A DNA stretch of 60,920 nt, the filler included. It is 7 parts of 7 records of this genome, joined end to end, with 100 filler letters (N's around TTAATTAATTAA, not from the genome) between each part and the next. Parts side by side here need not be neighbours in the genome. Positions count along the whole stretch, not along the records: positions 29,295 to 37,588 come from SRR20825010_6252; 6 more parts are not named here. The stretch is one strand, 5' to 3'. Made by a program: the position numbers and the translations under genes. This document shows, in pieces, positions 31,962 to 37,688 of the stretch. The number at the start of each line of letters is the position of its first letter. Positions within the stretch are counted from its first letter, which is position 1. The notes under the pieces were generated by a model. The model worked only from the letters and a program-made list of their open reading frames with translations, searched no databases and was not told the origin of the DNA.

Positions 31962-32345
31962 TTTTTACATGTTTATTATTTGATTTACAGGTGCATAGCT
32001 AGTTCAAAATAGCTCTTTCCGATTATGTGTTTGACATATTCCACAAAATTTTTGACGCAAAAAGGAAAATTTGGACGTTGTTTGATAAAGACGGCCAAAA
32101 AACACCATTGAAGAAATGTTGACGAACGACCTGATGCGCTTGTACAATGTTTCTTCCTATTTGGCCGATCACTTGAACTATTTTAGCGTTGCCATTTATC
32201 CAACCAGTTCAAAAAAAACAACTGGACTGACCCCCGATCAGTTCTAAAAAATCGTGAAAATGCACAGGAAGAATGGGATATAATATTATGGACACTCTTT
32301 CCACTTTTTTTAAAAAAAGACTAAAATCTCTTCTGTTGACGATAA

Positions 32346-32375
32346 TTATGTAACAGAATCCACAAGTTATGTAAC
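32346..32375 (+). promoter_or_regulatory. Direct repeat with 21-bp period, candidate AraC-family sites
   Basis: TTATGTAAC at 32346 and 32367 upstream of the araC-like gene. Confidence 0.5.
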
Positions 32376-32451
32376 GTAAACCGTAATATCATCATTACAT
32401 TACCCTTTTACGTTTGGCCCTAACACAAAACGTCTTTAAAACAACAGAACC

Positions 32452-33477
32452 ATGAAAACAAAAGCGCCACAGACCACATACTTTAGAAATATGTTTGAAC
32501 AGTTTCAAAATGATATTGGGGGCGACCTAAAGGTCGATTCGAACAACGAACATACTCTTGACATCAACAATGACTTTGGAGACGGCTATATCAAAGGAAT
32601 CTCGTTTAATGATGGTATGTGTTATATGGAGTTCGATATTAAATTTACCAAAGATTTAACCATGGTCGTCAATTCGCCAGAGTACACCTCCATTTGCTTT
32701 GCATATTGTTCCCAAGGGCAGATAGCGCAAAGCTTTGGGAAAAATGGCAAAAAAACCGAACTGGAAAGTTTTCAAACTGGAATGTTGGCCAGCAACTCCT
32801 CACAGGACAACCTATTGTACTTTGACGAATCCACCAACTTAAAAATGATGCTGATCATCGTAAATCCTTCGAAGAACAATAGAGCAGAAAAAAACCTCAA
32901 CCAAAAACTACAGAAACTGTTCTTCGATAACATGGAGAACGACAATTTTGTTTATGTAGGTTCCCATAATTTAAAGGTAGCGGATAAAATACAACAGCTT
33001 AAAAGTATTTCCATAGATGGCATTGCCCGAAAAATAATGATCGAGGGATTGGTACACATGATATTGGCATTGGAAATACAACAACATTCCGACGACTTAA
33101 AGAATGCTGTTCTTCGTGACTCAATGCTGACTTCTAGGGAAAGAGGGGTGGTACAAGAGCTTTCGGAATTCATCAGCAACTATATAGAGAGAAAACTGCC
33201 CATATCCTATTTATGCAAAAAAAGCGGGCTATCTCCTTCAAAATTGCAAGAAGGCTTCAAATTGATGCACGGCACCACAGTGACCGATTACATCCGAAAT
33301 GTAAGAATATGTAAAGCGGAAGAATTGATAAAGACCACTGATTTAAATATTTCACAGGTGGTCTATAGCATCGGATTCATAAGCAGAAGTTATTTTTCAA
33401 AAATTTTCAAAGCAAGATACAATTGTAGTCCAAAGGAATATAAGGACAAGCAAAATTCCCGCCTTGTTCCAGCCTGA
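32452..33477 (+). CDS. AraC-family transcriptional regulator
   Basis: GLSPSKLQEGFK and NISQVVYSIGFISRSYFSKIFKARYNCSP double HTH. Confidence 0.95.
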   Translation: MKTKAPQTTYFRNMFEQFQNDIGGDLKVDSNNEHTLDINNDFGDGYIKGISFNDGMCYMEFDIKFTKDLTMVVNSPEYTSICFAYCSQGQIAQSFGKNGKKTELESFQTGMLASNSSQDNLLYFDESTNLKMMLIIVNPSKNNRAEKNLNQKLQKLFFDNMENDNFVYVGSHNLKVADKIQQLKSISIDGIARKIMIEGLVHMILALEIQQHSDDLKNAVLRDSMLTSRERGVVQELSEFISNYIERKLPISYLCKKSGLSPSKLQEGFKLMHGTTVTDYIRNVRICKAEELIKTTDLNISQVVYSIGFISRSYFSKIFKARYNCSPKEYKDKQNSRLVPA

Positions 33478-33611
33478 TTGCACCATAGCGCTCGCTCCCC
33501 TATTACCCTAGGCCGTATGGCCCATTAAAAAAGCAAATGGCACTATAACGTTTTCGACAAATCGTAATAGGGCACCTATTACGTTATAAAAAGCATAAAC
33601 CCCTTGTATTA

Positions 33612-33643
33612 TTGGGATTTAAGGCCTTATTTTCTTACCTTTG
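33612..33643 (+). promoter_or_regulatory. Bacteroidota primary-sigma promoter for the GNAT-rpsU-pro operon
   Basis: TACCTTTG (33636-33643) matches TAnnTTTG; TTG 21 nt upstream. Confidence 0.7.
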
Positions 33644-33648
33644 TCTCG

Positions 33649-33750
33649 ATGAACGTTAAGCTCCACGAGAGAAAAAACTGTAGAATCCTAAGTTTTAATT
33701 ATCTGGTATTCAGAAACCAGTCAGATAAGTTCATTCCGCCTACCCTTTAA
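33649..33750 (+). CDS. Candidate 33-aa leader peptide (uORF) with Pro-Pro near its end
   Basis: Manual translation MNVKLHERKNCRILSFNYLVFRNQSDKFIPPTL*; ATG lies at the expected TSS; upstream of proCBA. Confidence 0.5.
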   Translation: MNVKLHERKNCRILSFNYLVFRNQSDKFIPPTL

Positions 33751-33894
33751 TTACCTTCCCCTTATTCGGGAAGTAGACCCTATTACTATGGGAACTTAAG
33801 GACATTTCGTCCATCCTTTTCCATTTAGCCCTAATCGAAGCTTTAACTAAACTAAAAACTTAAAAATTAATCCATTATCGTTCAAAACAAAAGC

Positions 33895-34338
33895 ATGGTA
33901 ATTAAGACCTACGATGCCTATACAAGGCTTTCTACCATGGAAGCCGACCGGTTTGCCAATTTTCTCTTTGACCACCAAGAGGGCAAGAGAGCTACAAAAA
34001 AAGCAATTAGAAAGGCTATACAATATTCTACCAAAGATATTCCCGGACTTGGCGGATATGTGTTCGCCATGGAGGACAAAAATGAAATTTTAGGTTTGGC
34101 AGTTGTAAACAAAACAGGCATGGGAGATTATATACCCGAAAATTTCTTGGTATTCTTTGTGATTCACAGAGATTATAGAAACAACGATATAGAGCAAAAA
34201 CTATTGGACTACACCCTGCAATATTGTAAAGGAGACGTTGCCGTTCACATTACAGGTGAAAACCAATATCCGAATAAAAAATTTTTTGAAGATAAAGGGT
34301 TCAGCGCAACCCATTTAGAAATGAGATTGAACAGATAA
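33895..34338 (+). CDS. GNAT-fold protein with degenerate acetyl-CoA motif
   Basis: GGYVF..ILGLAVVN..LVFFVIHRDYR..FFEDKGF GNAT layout; motif A reads RNNDIE. Confidence 0.75.
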   Translation: MVIKTYDAYTRLSTMEADRFANFLFDHQEGKRATKKAIRKAIQYSTKDIPGLGGYVFAMEDKNEILGLAVVNKTGMGDYIPENFLVFFVIHRDYRNNDIEQKLLDYTLQYCKGDVAVHITGENQYPNKKFFEDKGFSATHLEMRLNR

Positions 34339-34346
34339 ACCATTAT

Positions 34347-34541
34347 ATGTTAAAAATAGAAGTTAAGCCAGGCGAAAGTATTGAAAGGGCTCTAAAACGC
34401 TATAAAAGAAAATATAGAAACACAAAGCGTTTGGACCAAATACGCAGCCGGCAAGAGTATACCAAAAAATCAGTAGAACGCCGAAAAACACTTAAAAAGG
34501 CACAATATAAAGAGCAATTCCTGAACGAACAGGAAGACTAA
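34347..34541 (+). CDS. rpsU: 30S ribosomal protein bS21 (probable second copy)
   Basis: VKPGESIERALKRYKRK..YTKKSVERR..KAQY. Confidence 0.93.
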   Translation: MLKIEVKPGESIERALKRYKRKYRNTKRLDQIRSRQEYTKKSVERRKTLKKAQYKEQFLNEQED

Positions 34542-34575
34542 TAACATCAAAAATTAAAGTATCAATAACAATAAA

Positions 34576-34767
34576 ATGAGACTTTCAAGAATTAAAAGGG
34601 AAACAAGATATGAAAAACGCTATAGCGTTAAAATGGGAGAACTTACTACCCGTGTCACCTATATAAGAAGGTACATAATGGGACTTCCCGTACGCACTTT
34701 GCACAGATACCGTTCAACATACTACGGTAAGGTCAAAGATTGCAACGATTGCAACGTATTATCATAA
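34576..34767 (+). CDS. Small basic Arg/Tyr-rich hypothetical protein
   Basis: 63 aa, ATG after A-rich tract, fills the gap between rpsU and proC. Confidence 0.7.
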   Translation: MRLSRIKRETRYEKRYSVKMGELTTRVTYIRRYIMGLPVRTLHRYRSTYYGKVKDCNDCNVLS

Positions 34768-34807
34768 CATTATTAGAACTTTTTATATAAACCTTTTAAC
34801 ATAAACA

Positions 34808-35614
34808 ATGAAAGTATTGGTTATTGGCGCAGGTAACATGGGGCTTACCTATGCCACAGGTATGTCTAAATCCAAATTGTTGAAAAAACGCAACATCATG
34901 GTGCTGGACAAATCAAAAGAAAAATTGGAAGAAGTAGGTAAAATAGCCTATTTCGATGCCATTGACAAAATCGAAGATTGTGTTCCACAGGCGGATATCA
35001 TCTTTTTGGCCGTAAAACCATATCATGCCGAGGAACTTTTTGGGCGCATGAAACCATTGGTAAACCCAGAACAATTGTTCATATCCATTATGGCAGGGGT
35101 CACCATCAACTATATACAGGAAGCCCTTGGTATCAAAAAAGTGGTAAGGGCCATGCCCAATCTGCCAGCTCAAGTTGGTAAGGGTTTGACCAGCTACGTG
35201 TCCGCCGAGGAAGTTTCCCGATTGGAACTTTTTATGGTCGAAGGGCTGTTGGATACAACGGGTAAATCGCTTAGAGTGAAAAATGAGAAATATATTGATG
35301 CATCTACCGGAATTTCTGGAAGTGGACCAGCATATGTTTTCTACTTCATGCAAAGTATGATGGAAGCCGCACTACAAATGGGATTCTCCGAAAATGTATC
35401 CAAAGTACTCGTGAGCCAAACATTTACAGGTGCCGTGGAATTGTTCAACCAGAACAACCTAAATCCCGACACTTGGATGGAGATGGTAGCCTCCAAAGGA
35501 GGAACCACCAGGGCCGCCTTGGACTCCATGGAAGACAACAATGTAAACGAATTAATCAAAGAAGCCGCCTTTGCAGCATTCGGTAGAGCTGTGGAACTGG
35601 GCGAAGAATACTAA
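34808..35614 (+). CDS. proC: Pyrroline-5-carboxylate reductase
   Basis: IGAGNMG, AVKP, RAMPN, SGSGPAY, VASKGGTT. Confidence 0.96.
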   Translation: MKVLVIGAGNMGLTYATGMSKSKLLKKRNIMVLDKSKEKLEEVGKIAYFDAIDKIEDCVPQADIIFLAVKPYHAEELFGRMKPLVNPEQLFISIMAGVTINYIQEALGIKKVVRAMPNLPAQVGKGLTSYVSAEEVSRLELFMVEGLLDTTGKSLRVKNEKYIDASTGISGSGPAYVFYFMQSMMEAALQMGFSENVSKVLVSQTFTGAVELFNQNNLNPDTWMEMVASKGGTTRAALDSMEDNNVNELIKEAAFAAFGRAVELGEEY

Positions 35615-35617
35615 AAC

Positions 35618-36388
35618 ATGTATAAAGAACTAGTGGTCATCAAAGTAGGTACAAATGTGATGACCAACAAAGACAACAGAATTGTAAGACCAGTGCTCAA
35701 CAATTTGGTACAACAAATTGCAGAGCTTTACGAACGTGACATCATGACCATTTTGGTCTCCTCTGGGTCGGTAATCGCCGGTAAAGAGGTTCTGGGAAAA
35801 GCAAAGATCAAAGATAAGACCCAACGTAGGCAAGTATATTCCGCCATTGGGCAACCCAGAATGATGAGGCATTATTATAACATATTCAACGATTACGGAA
35901 TGAAATGTGCCCAGGTACTCCCAACAAAAAGGGATTTTAATCCTGGCGTGCACCGCGACAACATGATCAATTGCTTGGAAGGACTCCTTTCCGAAGGCGT
36001 GATTCCGATTGCCAATGAGGATGATGCCGTTTCCGTATCCATGTCCATGTTTTCGGACAATGATGAATTGGCCACTTTGCTGGCACAACTGATGAAGGCA
36101 GACAGACTTATCCTAATGACGGATATTGATGGCCTTTACGATGGACATCCAGAAAAAGCCGATTCCAAGGTAATCGACAAGGTCGAGCCAAAAGAAGACT
36201 TGGACAAGTATATAGAAGAGGGAAACAAACAAGAAGGCGAAGGCCGTGGTGGCATGGGATCAAAATTAAACTATGCCCAAAAAGCCGCAGCGGCAGACAT
36301 TCCATCTTACATTGTCAATGGGAAACGAGATAACGTAATCCTGGATATTGTAGAAGGAAAAAATGTAGGAACAGAAGTTTCAAAATAA
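35618..36388 (+). CDS. proB: Glutamate 5-kinase without PUA domain
   Basis: VIKVGT, VSSGSV, IGQ, NEDDAV..SDND, GGMGSK. Confidence 0.95.
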   Translation: MYKELVVIKVGTNVMTNKDNRIVRPVLNNLVQQIAELYERDIMTILVSSGSVIAGKEVLGKAKIKDKTQRRQVYSAIGQPRMMRHYYNIFNDYGMKCAQVLPTKRDFNPGVHRDNMINCLEGLLSEGVIPIANEDDAVSVSMSMFSDNDELATLLAQLMKADRLILMTDIDGLYDGHPEKADSKVIDKVEPKEDLDKYIEEGNKQEGEGRGGMGSKLNYAQKAAAADIPSYIVNGKRDNVILDIVEGKNVGTEVSK

Positions 36389-36393
36389 CAACA

Positions 36394-37588
36394 ATGAAAT
36401 TATTAAAAACAGATTTAAAAAATAAAGTATTGCAAGATATGGAGCGAATCCTTGATGAAAATCGGGACGAATTGCTCCAAGCAAACAAAAAAGATTTAGA
36501 CGCATTCAACCGCGACGATCAAGCATTGTACGATCGTTTGGTGGTGGACCAAAAGAAAGTGGACCAAATGATCCAGGCCGTGAAAGAAGTTCGCTTGCAA
36601 GATGACCCGGTCAATAAGGAAATCTCCACAAGGGAATTGGACAACGGACTCAAAATCATCAACAGAACTGCTCCTTTTGGCACCATAATGATTATTTACG
36701 AGTCCCGCCCCGATGTAACCATTGAGGCAGCCGTACTTGCATTTAAGGCGAATAATAAAATATTGCTCAAAGGAGGTAAGGAAGCTTACCACAGCAACAA
36801 AGCCTTGGTTAAGTTCTGGCATCAAGCCCTGACCGAAAATGGTCTGTCCAAAGATTATATCCAGTTTATGGAGATGGACAGGACCCAAACACAGGAGTTC
36901 CTTAGGAATCCGGATCAGGAGCTAGACCTCATTGTTCCCCGTGGCGGCGAACGATTGATCAATTTTGTAAAAGAACACGCCAAATGCGCGGTGCTCATAA
37001 GCGGTAGAGGGAACAATTTCCTATATGTGCACAAAGAAGCCGATTGGGAAAAAAGTTTGAAAGTGATTTTGAACGCAAAAACCCATAAGATTTCGGCCTG
37101 TAATGCCTTGGACAAAATTTTGGTTGATACTCAAATTGATGGTTATGAAGACAAGCTGAAAGAATTACAACAAGTACTCACGGCAAACAATGTATCCATA
37201 ATCGTGGATGATAAAGTCAAAAAAACATTGACCAATGAGGATGCCATTACCGATGAATCCATTTGGCAAGAAGAGTTCTTGGCCATGAAGTGTGTTATTG
37301 GTGCTGTCGATAATATTGACGAAGCCATGGATAAAATCAACAAGAACTCTGGAGGGCACTCAGCATCCATAATGACGGAGAACAATAGTGTAGCCAAAAC
37401 GTTCATGGAAAATGTGGACTGTGCTGCGGTATACCAAAACGCATCCACCCGTTTCACTGATGGTGGGCAAATGGGCGTTGGTGCGGAACTCGCAATCAGT
37501 ACGGACAAATTGCACCACCGAGGGCCACTCGGACTAAAACAACTGGTCACCAACAAATACTATGTATTTGGCGATGGGCAGATAAGGG
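36394..37588 (+). CDS. proA: Gamma-glutamyl phosphate reductase (last codons cut by contig end)
   Basis: IYESRPDVT, PRGG, SACNA, NASTRFTDG, ISTDKLHHRGP. Confidence 0.96.
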
Positions 37589-37688
37589 NNNNNNNNNNNN
37601 NNNNNNNNNNNNNNNNNNNNNNNNNNNNNNNNTTAATTAATTAANNNNNNNNNNNNNNNNNNNNNNNNNNNNNNNNNNNNNNNNNNNN
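37589..37688. other. Artificial contig spacer
   Basis: N44-TTAATTAATTAA-N44. Confidence 0.99.

Follow-up and report, generated by a model that had tools for sequence, protein, structure and literature searches.

To our knowledge, regulatory arrest peptides are few, and most have been found singly in Proteobacteria and Firmicutes. In the MgtL and MgtP leaders of Salmonella mgtA and mgtCBR, Pro codons in short open reading frames (ORFs) couple the progress of the ribosome to read-through of a long leader, and these Pro-codon leaders also respond to hyperosmotic stress. The ligand-sensing arrest peptides TnaC, of the tryptophanase operon, and SpeFL, of the speF operon, act in cis through a conserved nascent peptide that stalls the ribosome at or beside the stop codon by blocking release, and the stalled ribosome is thought to prevent premature termination. 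In the RAPP and RGPP peptides (ApcA, ApdA and ApdP) and in SecM, a C-terminal core located 5' of the regulated gene ends in Pro-Pro or in an A-site Pro. The trpL, hisL and pheL leaders, and the T-boxes that Firmicutes use for proBA, regulate amino acid biosynthetic operons after initiation through the supply of the cognate charged tRNA. The passages cited here report dependence on elongation factor P (EF-P) for Salmonella Pro-codon leaders (PMC6460261), sensing of free L-Trp by TnaC (PMC8429421), a contribution of N-terminal nascent-chain context to RAPP, RGPP and SecM arrests (PMC12992588, PMC10951233, PMC7897499, PMC10951299) and an R-A/G-P-P core that defines RAPP and RGPP (PMC12992588). 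Here we describe a leader ORF at positions 33649-33750 of a 60,920-nucleotide (nt) stretch of DNA (hereafter the window, to which all positions refer), where it heads a string of six genes that ends in proC, proB and proA. On balance, we favour the view that it belongs to an undescribed family of cis-acting leader peptides in marine Bacteroidota, in which stalling at a Pro-Pro pair sets operon expression. Bacteroidota largely lack Shine-Dalgarno-based control, and their translation initiation is unusual. If our view is correct, this would be a widespread arrest-peptide family in marine members of a phylum where control after initiation is poorly known.

By analogy, the leader appears to resemble MgtL/MgtP, TnaC/SpeFL and the RAPP peptides in its working, but it belongs to none of these groups; its leaderless layout, its host phylum, its multi-operon regulon and the peptide family itself set it apart. 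Compared with MgtL and MgtP, the two Pro residues are adjacent and follow a 20-residue invariant segment, the mRNA is leaderless and the hosts are Bacteroidota, and the genes presumed to be controlled serve proline synthesis, osmoprotectant uptake, a sigma factor and ribosomal protein S21 rather than Mg2+ transport. Scans of the peptide against Pfam and NCBIfam returned nothing and revealed no sequence relationship to MgtL or MgtP. Whereas TnaC and SpeFL stall at or beside the stop codon, the stop here lies 2-8 variable codons past the core and not at a fixed distance, so that the stall site should be the Pro-Pro pair, during elongation. Because the regulon is partly biosynthetic, the logic of any ligand effect would also have to differ from that of TnaC and SpeFL. 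In contrast to RAPP and RGPP, the core is K-F-I-P-P (with the variants KYIPP, KFVPP, QFIPP and RCIPP) and not R-A/G-P-P, the peptide has no signal peptide or membrane segment, and no Sec or YidC genes lie behind it; for RAPP, arrests are reported to be refractory to EF-P. Unlike trpL, hisL and pheL, the leader shows no clear run of regulatory codons, having two adjacent Pro codons among its 33, and lacks a terminator/antiterminator pair, and its peptide sequence is itself conserved. No T-box or other Rfam family was matched in a scan of positions 32000-36000 with E values up to 10, where the only two rows, for a snoRNA and a plant-virus element, were at chance level and fell well short of their gathering scores.

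The leader lies in the 417-nt intergenic region between genes for an AraC-type regulator and a GNAT acetyltransferase, and is made up of the following features:

33649-33750, plus strand: leader ORF of 33 codons, stop included in the coordinates; leaderless, recognised by coding-type substitutions and by its peptide family
33636-33643, plus strand: Bacteroidota sigma-A type -7 box TACCTTTG (TAnnTTTG), read from the sequence
33676-33741, plus strand: conserved gap-free core, codons N10 to P31 (N.RI..F..LVFRNQ..KFIPP), the presumed tunnel-interacting arrest segment
33736-33741, plus strand: CCG CCT, two neighbouring Pro codons at which stalling is presumed
33742-33750, plus strand: variable tail (T L) and TAA; the length and sequence of the tail past the Pro-Pro pair differ across loci
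33751-33894, plus strand: untranslated spacer of 144 nt that separates the leader ORF from the GNAT gene; its 5' end is rich in C/U and poor in G

The ORF reads MNVKLHERKNCRILSFNYLVFRNQSDKFIPPTL, with its ATG at 33649-33651 and its TAA at 33748-33750. Its sole prolines are encoded by CCG at 33736-33738 and CCT at 33739-33741, two sense codons ahead of the stop. The 33-residue peptide is basic (7 Lys/Arg versus 2 Asp/Glu) and contains no hydrophobic segment. An earlier inspection of the DNA (the initial annotation) had described these elements accurately, including the TACCTTTG box 5 nt before the ATG, the 33-codon frame, the lone CCG-CCT pair and a 6-bp hairpin, CTTCCC/GGGAAG, in a C/U-rich tract.

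In a comparison with sampled genomes of the same genus, the intergenic DNA was matched in 18 of 25. The window and all 18 loci keep the 102-nt ORF with its ATG, TAA and Pro-Pro pair. Among 27 distinct same-genus leaders, variable columns numbered 9, 5 and 23 at the three codon positions (chi-square p = 7e-4), there were 39 extra synonymous codons versus 15 extra amino acids, and pairwise identity was 0.886 in the ORF versus 0.531 in the spacer behind it. The third-position bias, the synonymous excess and the identity contrast together indicate a translated gene under purifying selection on the protein. Judged by these substitutions, the 33-codon ORF is real and selection acts on it at the amino acid level, which answers the caveat of the initial annotation that a frame of this length can arise by chance; the comparison of orthologous leaders that it had proposed found frame, ATG, stop and Pro-Pro pair all kept. 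As the loci are phylogenetically related, these and all later counts overstate independence. A third Pro is present at codon 25 in 14 of 16 distinct same-genus sequences, and the window has two Pro only. Codons 5-8 (CTC CAC GAG AGA, 33661-33672) showed no synonymous change in the 27 leaders, with adjoining codons free to vary, and a nucleotide-level constraint close to the 5' end of a leaderless mRNA is possible on this pattern. RNAalifold pairs ACGA in the region of these codons with TCGT directly ahead of the GNAT start, in 4 bp without covariation.

The distribution of the peptide was assessed with a six-frame search of one genome per genus of the taxonomic family (301 genomes from 300 genera). 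The peptide was matched in 31 of the 301 genomes, or 30 of the 300 genera, at E <= 2.2e-7. A weaker match (E 1e-3), in genome G060, turned out when inspected to be a divergent member ending in IPP, which indicates that the family is wider than its canonical core. This member (L202, G060:C4, ..HIFSFEYLIFRSQTSRCIPPTT) lies 3' of p63, a gene for a conserved protein of 63 amino acids (aa), and about 200 nt 5' of a sigma-70-type gene, without a canonical TAnnTTTG box. In a phylum-wide sample, a profile search that scored only 19 candidates per genome matched 3 of 29 genomes of the taxonomic family and none of 372 genomes outside it. A back-translated pattern was also scanned against approximately 186,000 species genomes, returning at least 120 stretches, 80 of which were listed; 78 of these are members of the peptide family, and two were rejected as chance matches inside long ORFs. 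All counts given below as fractions of 78 loci refer to members among the matches listed, in a scan biased towards the canonical core. Among these matches were Flagellimonas/Muricauda/Allomuricauda, Tenacibaculum, Polaribacter, Algibacter, Mariniflexile, Tamlana, Seonamhaeicola, Gaetbulibacter, Winogradskyella, Dokdonia and Maribacter, all of them known as marine genera. The matches listed also included a metagenome-assembled genome (MAG) of Prolixibacteraceae and a Maribellus MAG, two Bacteroidia outside Flavobacteriales, and the family therefore extends beyond that order.

Conservation of the peptide is concentrated in a segment that ends at the Pro-Pro pair. In a pattern-independent alignment of 28 genera, residues N10, R12, F16, V20, F21, R22, Q24, K27, F28, I29, P30 and P31 are invariant, and the 22 residues from N10 to P31 are aligned without a single indel. 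Each invariant residue is written with several synonymous codons (Arg, for example, as AGA, CGA, AGG or CGN), the first nine residues of the peptide are variable, and the tail of 2-8 residues past the Pro-Pro pair is unconserved. At positions left free in the search pattern, N10 and R12 were present in 98 of 98 distinct cores and F16 in 96 of 98. Of 30 family-search loci, 29 have the Pro-Pro pair, as does the divergent G060 copy, and the divergent core ends KYIPP, KFVPP, QFIPP and RCIPP all retain it. A profile search of 1.84 billion representative proteins gave 13 matches, 12 of which are proteins of 32-79 aa with the motif at the C-terminus and the Pro-Pro pair present in all 12; the KYIPP, KFVPP and QFIPP variants occur among them. 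At one locus (L045, G339:C41), IPS replaces IPP and the in-frame ATG is missing from its usual position; the copy may have decayed, or its short contig may contain a sequencing error.

As the initial annotation had proposed, the leader gene is essentially unannotated and has been missed by annotation pipelines. Nine of ten exact peptides were absent from a collection of approximately 15 billion proteins, and the tenth is unnamed there. No account of the motif, or of a leader of this kind in Flavobacteria or Bacteroidota, turned up in literature searches, although they did not cover the supplementary list of candidate attenuators in PMC9723704, which might bear on novelty. Nor did a search for an osmotic-response transcriptome of Flagellimonas or Muricauda give a relevant result. 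With only 13 matches among 1.84 billion representative proteins, the leader ORF is a real gene overlooked by annotation.

The position of the promoter relative to the ATG is also conserved. In the window the gap between TACCTTTG and the ATG at 33649 is 5 nt (TCTCG), and of 94 distinct loci, 90 have a TAnnTTnG box 4-9 nt ahead of the ATG (the gap is 4 nt in 43, 5 nt in 25 and 6 nt in 14), which indicates that the leader mRNA is leaderless. A passage of PMC9723704 places the sigma-A -7 box of Flavobacterium psychrophilum at -12 to -5 and gives leaderless mRNAs as 5.5% of the mRNAs of this species. With the box at these positions, a 4-nt gap makes the A of the ATG +1, and the 5-nt gap of the window places the start at that A or one base ahead of it. 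On this spacing, the leader ORF opens a leaderless mRNA as its first cistron, in line with the earlier placement of its ATG at the expected transcription start. The promoter itself is near-consensus and of the housekeeping type, which fits control exerted after initiation. RNA-library contigs from three studies start at 33650 (two contigs, run X5), 33661 (X3) and 33672 (X4), all within 23 nt after the predicted start, and no RNA contigs from these runs were found upstream of the contig starts or of 33581; this is a weak hint, as the contigs are assembled and levels, strands and true ends cannot be derived from them. Two such contigs, 33717-33903 and 33672-34126, span the ORF into the GNAT gene.

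The genes around the leader in the window are:

32452-33477: AraC-type regulator, upstream of the intergenic region that bears the ORF
33895-34338, plus strand: GNAT acetyltransferase, the first structural gene (Pfam PF13673 and PF00583 above cut-off, PF13508 below)
34347-34541, plus strand: second, divergent ribosomal protein S21 paralogue (PF01165, TIGR00030)
34576-34767, plus strand: p63, a conserved and very basic 63-aa protein without Pfam or NCBIfam match
34808-35614, plus strand: proC (TIGR00112 above cut-off)
35618-36388, plus strand: proB, short form (TIGR01027 above cut-off)
36394-37644, plus strand: proA (NF001221 above cut-off)

The initial annotation had placed the ORF ahead of the proline operon. 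The pro genes do lie downstream, but the wording is loose: the GNAT gene, the S21 paralogue and the 63-aa ORF come first, and proC begins at 34808, 1,058 nt past the leader stop. In the nearest genomes (G001 and G336), the proB of this operon is the only proB, another proC is present elsewhere, and the S21 of the operon scores lower than the S21 found elsewhere (41 versus 63 bits). In Bacteroidota, S21 is known for its role at the anti-Shine-Dalgarno sequence.

Across the 78 listed loci, the leader precedes several kinds of operon. Pro genes are found downstream in 43, usually in the order GNAT-(S21)-p63-proC-proB-proA, sigma-70-type genes in 13, unk396 (a gene for a protein of 380-396 aa) with a BCCT or ABC transporter gene behind it in five and other genes in eight, and nine loci are too short to inform. 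A GNAT gene directly follows the leader ORF in 56 of the 78 loci, p63 is downstream in 47 and an S21 paralogue in 29, often beside the sigma-70-type factor, a pairing that suggests a stress-ribosome module. A short leader ORF ahead of GNAT-S21-p63-proCBA is the arrangement expected from the trp, his and phe systems, yet pro genes are absent behind the leader in 26 of 69 informative loci. The leader is therefore not specific to proline biosynthesis. In Tenacibaculum, the sigma operons run from GNAT through an RpoD/RpoS-like sigma factor and S21 to a sodium:solute symporter, an M20 peptidase and an alanine-racemase-fold protein; PutP is the closest named match of the symporter, at a score below cut-off. 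Where transporter operons follow, they encode a BCCT carrier (TIGR00842, score 494.6, cut-off 407.55) with tandem Usp or, at L065 of the Prolixibacteraceae MAG, a ProW-like permease together with a ProV-type ATPase that bears a CBS domain (TIGR01186, 422 bits, cut-off 326.6). L100, from Maribellus, matches L065 in gene layout, and layout alone is the basis on which its transporter genes are identified. At four loci (L044, L065, L079 and L100) the leader stands directly ahead of transporter operons that lack S21, p63 and GNAT genes. Two copies of the leader are present in three of three Tenacibaculum genomes, one before unk396-BCCT and one before GNAT-sigma, and these paired copies have near-identical cores and different N-termini. 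From its gene content, the regulon looks like one of proline supply, osmoprotection, and translation and transcription stress factors. If so, one nascent peptide would join proline synthesis, osmoprotectant uptake, an alternative sigma-type factor and a second S21.

The gap-free, tunnel-length core that ends at the Pro-Pro pair, the free tail, the first position in the transcript, the long untranslated spacer and the presence of several copies fit a cis-acting arrest peptide that stalls in elongation. The initial annotation had proposed a ribosome-stalling, possibly Rho-dependent, proline attenuator. A stalling leader is the best reading of the locus, with the Pro-Pro pair its most constant element and near the 3' end of the ORF; specificity for the proline operon did not hold, given the distribution above, and conservation is not confined to the Pro codons but covers the whole 22-residue stretch up to them, which speaks for an arrest peptide acting as a nascent chain over plain hungry codons. 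We infer from the sequences that stalling, its signal, its polarity and an involvement of Rho could be arranged as follows. With the nascent segment from N10 to I29 in the exit tunnel, formation of the Pro30-Pro31 bond would be slow or conditional. A ribosome with Pro30 in its P site would then stall with its leading edge close to the stop codon, 5 nt short of the first hairpin of the spacer. The length of the stall would be set by the ease of the Pro-Pro step, that is by the supply of Pro-tRNAPro or proline, by the action of EF-P and possibly by the ionic or osmotic state of the cytoplasm, and would in turn determine the extent to which transcription or mRNA carries on through the 50-290-nt spacer to the operon. 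The most likely output, by analogy with tnaC and mgtL, is that the stalled ribosome hinders Rho-assisted or hairpin-assisted termination of the untranslated, C-rich and G-poor spacer RNA, in which case stalling would turn the operon ON.

The signal could be read in two ways. Under proline hunger, Pro-tRNAPro or EF-P would limit the Pro-Pro step, and each of the operons would raise proline supply. Under osmotic upshift, proline and betaines would serve as compatible solutes, and Usp, the sigma factor and S21 would be stress factors. Both readings fit the regulon, and the present data do not separate them. The 20 conserved residues upstream of the Pro-Pro pair suggest a role for the nascent chain itself in tuning or gating the stall, and would allow a small molecule or ionic conditions to be sensed directly. 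Tentatively, and as a possibility that we rate well short of probable, the nascent chain ending in FLVFRNQSDKFIPP might be a ribosome-borne sensor of cell state, in which Pro-Pro bonding depends on free proline, another compatible solute, or K+ and glutamate after osmotic upshift, and whose leaderless ORF has been copied before several operons to form a translation-based osmo/proline regulon. Such a regulon would comprise proline synthesis, BCCT, ProVW-type and PutP-like uptake, the sigma-70-type factor, the alternative S21 and p63. With 33 codons, an invariant Pro-Pro pair and natural variants, the leader would offer a compact handle on the sensing of proline supply or salt stress in abundant ocean bacteria.

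The folds of the spacer RNA were also examined. In the window, the spacer contains the following elements:

33755-33760 with 33768-33773, plus strand: hairpin 1, CTTCCC/GGGAAG, 6 bp with a 7-nt loop, 5 nt after the stop
33788-33824, plus strand: compound hairpin with outer stem ATGGGAA/TTTTCCAT and inner stem GGAC/GTCC, followed by TTAG; from the minimum free energy (MFE) fold of L025, whose spacer is identical to that of the window
33862-33894, plus strand: conserved 33 nt ahead of the GNAT start (..CCATTATCGTTCAAAACAAAAGC), with pairwise identity of 0.763 versus 0.531 in the rest of the spacer

RNAalifold applied to the 27 same-genus leaders recovered three short helices only, none of them a switch. 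The three innermost pairs of hairpin 1 are in the consensus, one of them with compensatory changes in three sequences; a second helix lies within the ORF and shows no compensatory change, and the third is a 4-bp long-range pairing. In the same-genus model, hairpin 1 is intact with a ribosome at the Pro-Pro pair and melted with a ribosome at the stop codon. The compound hairpin is not a canonical terminator and was not recovered by RNAalifold in these leaders; its inner stem differs in sequence in same-genus relatives, with pairing still possible by eye. A pairing of the K27-F28 codons with the 5' arm of this hairpin, seen in the MFE fold of the window, was rejected, as by eye it is not kept in relatives. 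Beyond the genus, spacers of at least 90 nt fold better than dinucleotide shuffles (mean z -2.28, n=89; 47 of 89 below -2 and six above 0), so that spacers are structured in most genera. Terminator-like hairpins with a U tract were found in 15 of 94 leaders compared with 7 of 470 shuffles, an approximately 10-fold enrichment. The first 40 nt past the stop have a C content of 0.195 and a G content of 0.120, with C exceeding G in 75 of 94 leaders; same-strand background spacers have 0.155 and 0.117, with C exceeding G in 33 of 55. Genes for rho and efp were present in three of three genomes checked; this rho gene and the weak C bias are what supports a putative Rho dependence. Together, the structured spacers, the enriched terminator-like hairpins, the C-rich and G-poor tract and the presence of rho and efp favour an mgtL/tnaC-like output. 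A second hairpin stands at a constant place about 15-25 nt ahead of the GNAT start (by eye; for example in L067, L068, L111, L038, L130 and L061); its sequence differs between genera, A-rich sequence follows it, and it could be an RNA processing or stability element.

Several observations weigh against regulation by Pro-Pro stalling. A strongly conserved, basic peptide would also be expected of a functional microprotein. V20-P31 were required by the search pattern, so that much of their invariance in the 78 listed loci is by construction, the independent evidence being the 28-genus alignment and the profile matches. No terminator-like site was found on the plus strand between 33300 and 35000, as the initial annotation had noted of intrinsic terminators, the leader of the window folds no better than shuffles (z -0.26), and two members have unstructured spacers of only 51-53 nt. 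A terminator/antiterminator switch worked by a ribosome at the Pro-Pro pair did not appear in the thermodynamic model: in 46 leaders with a main hairpin of <= -7 kcal/mol, the probability of that hairpin was 0.93 in free RNA and 0.92 with a ribosome at the pair, and one of the 46 switches. The RNA thus offers no mechanism by which a stall would lead to read-through. Spacing between the Pro-Pro pair and the first hairpin is bimodal rather than fixed, and is therefore uninformative. The C-rich, G-poor tract is the most widely shared feature after the stop, but its signal is weak and comes from related loci.

These points bear on the explanations that compete with an arrest peptide. In a hungry-codon attenuator of the trp/his type, low levels of charged tRNAPro would park the ribosome on CCG-CCT, an antiterminator would replace a terminator and read-through would follow. 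Such an attenuator would be consistent with the invariant adjacent Pro codons, the third Pro at codon 25 in most same-genus sequences and an operon that holds the sole proB of the nearest genomes, and the PutP-like symporter and the ProV/ProW-type 'betaine/proline/choline' ABC transporter could also raise proline supply; a passage of PMC9723704 gives clues to leader-peptide attenuation upstream of amino acid operons in a Flavobacterium. However, only two or three of the 33 codons specify Pro, the model does not need amino acid conservation across the 22 residues preceding the pair, and the same leader heads sigma-factor, S21, BCCT and Usp operons. Nor does any alternative pairing tie a ribosome at the Pro-Pro pair to the main hairpin, RNAalifold shows no switch, and a terminator-like site is present in 15 of 94 leaders and absent from the window; we consider this explanation improbable. 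Equally improbable, in our judgement, is a trans-acting microprotein, a basic peptide that would associate with the ribosome or bind a regulator alongside the S21 paralogue, p63 and GNAT, co-expressed as the first gene and with a structural Pro-Pro pair. Its strong amino acid conservation, its basic character, its frequent company of S21 (29 of 78 listed loci), p63 (47 of 78) and GNAT, and the likewise conserved and very basic nature of p63 would all suit such a protein. The two copies ahead of different operons in three of three Tenacibaculum genomes argue against it, as do the four transporter loci without S21, p63 and GNAT, the invariable first position followed by a long untranslated and mostly structured spacer, and the release of constraint on the C-terminal tail immediately past the Pro-Pro pair. 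In addition, p63 is found in 108 of the 301 sampled genomes, a spread that exceeds that of the leader ORF and often involves different contexts, and in 20 p63-bearing genomes that lack a strong match to the leader ORF, the 1.3 kb 5' of p63 contained no leaderless Pro-Pro ORF.

The main alternative to a termination-type output is mRNA stabilisation. A ribosome halted some 90 nt into the leaderless mRNA could shield it from 5'-end-dependent decay or processing, as in erm-type stability, or could alter translation of the next cistron. The nearly universal leaderless layout, the lack of a ribosome-dependent terminator switch in the model, the 51-53-nt unstructured spacers, which are too small for a terminator, and the position-conserved second hairpin before the next start codon in many genera would be accommodated by such an output, but the starts of the next genes are A-rich and mostly unpaired in predicted folds, leaving no obvious sequestration to relieve, and terminator-like hairpins are enriched about 10-fold over shuffles. 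We regard this output as unlikely. That the ORF is incidental, and the conserved element a non-coding RNA or a protein-binding DNA site, would agree with the unchanging codons 5-8 and with the conservation of promoter-proximal DNA, but is barely credible in view of the clear third-position bias, the keeping of frame, ATG and stop in 30 genera with widely differing nucleotide sequences, the lack of an Rfam match and a window leader that folds no better than shuffles. Regulation by an arrest-type leader peptide remains the explanation that we favour.

DNA immediately upstream of the promoter is also conserved, beginning at about 33581 in most same-genus genomes, and a relative's RNA-library contig diverges from the window upstream of the same position. 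The block is as follows:

33581-33635, plus strand: genus-conserved promoter-proximal block with AACGTTATA, an inverted repeat CCC..GTATTATTGGG and a possible -33 TTG at 33612-33614

The AACGTTATA element lies at 33579-33587, and approximately half of the relatives have an inverted partner, TATAACGTT, about 40 nt farther upstream. The small palindrome CCC..GTATTATTGGG overlies the possible -33 TTG. From this arrangement, the region 33541-33635 may be an operator for a transcription factor that acts in addition to the leader. A marginal look-alike of the block (AAACCCC..GT.TTAT...GGATTTAAGGC; 77%, E ~7e-4) was found 5' of an aldo/keto-reductase-like ORF in three same-genus genomes (L021-L023, in G015, G003 and G025), and could be a shared regulator site or a chance match. 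Another apparent second copy of the block (L020) was rejected as a scaffold-gap duplicate.

Two further proteins recur in these operons. A family of 380-396 aa is encoded directly 3' of the leader ORF and 5' of BCCT or ProVW-type genes (L079:2268-3422, L065:4402-5547 and L053:1713-2900), and its single Pfam signal is a sub-threshold FG-GAP-like repeat. p63 is called hypothetical by nearly all sources that name it, scans against Pfam and NCBIfam assigned it to no family, Foldseek found nothing in the PDB at E <= 0.001, and the ESM Atlas returned only clusters of 'hypothetical protein'. Its AlphaFold model (pLDDT 76.9) is a beta meander of three long strands.

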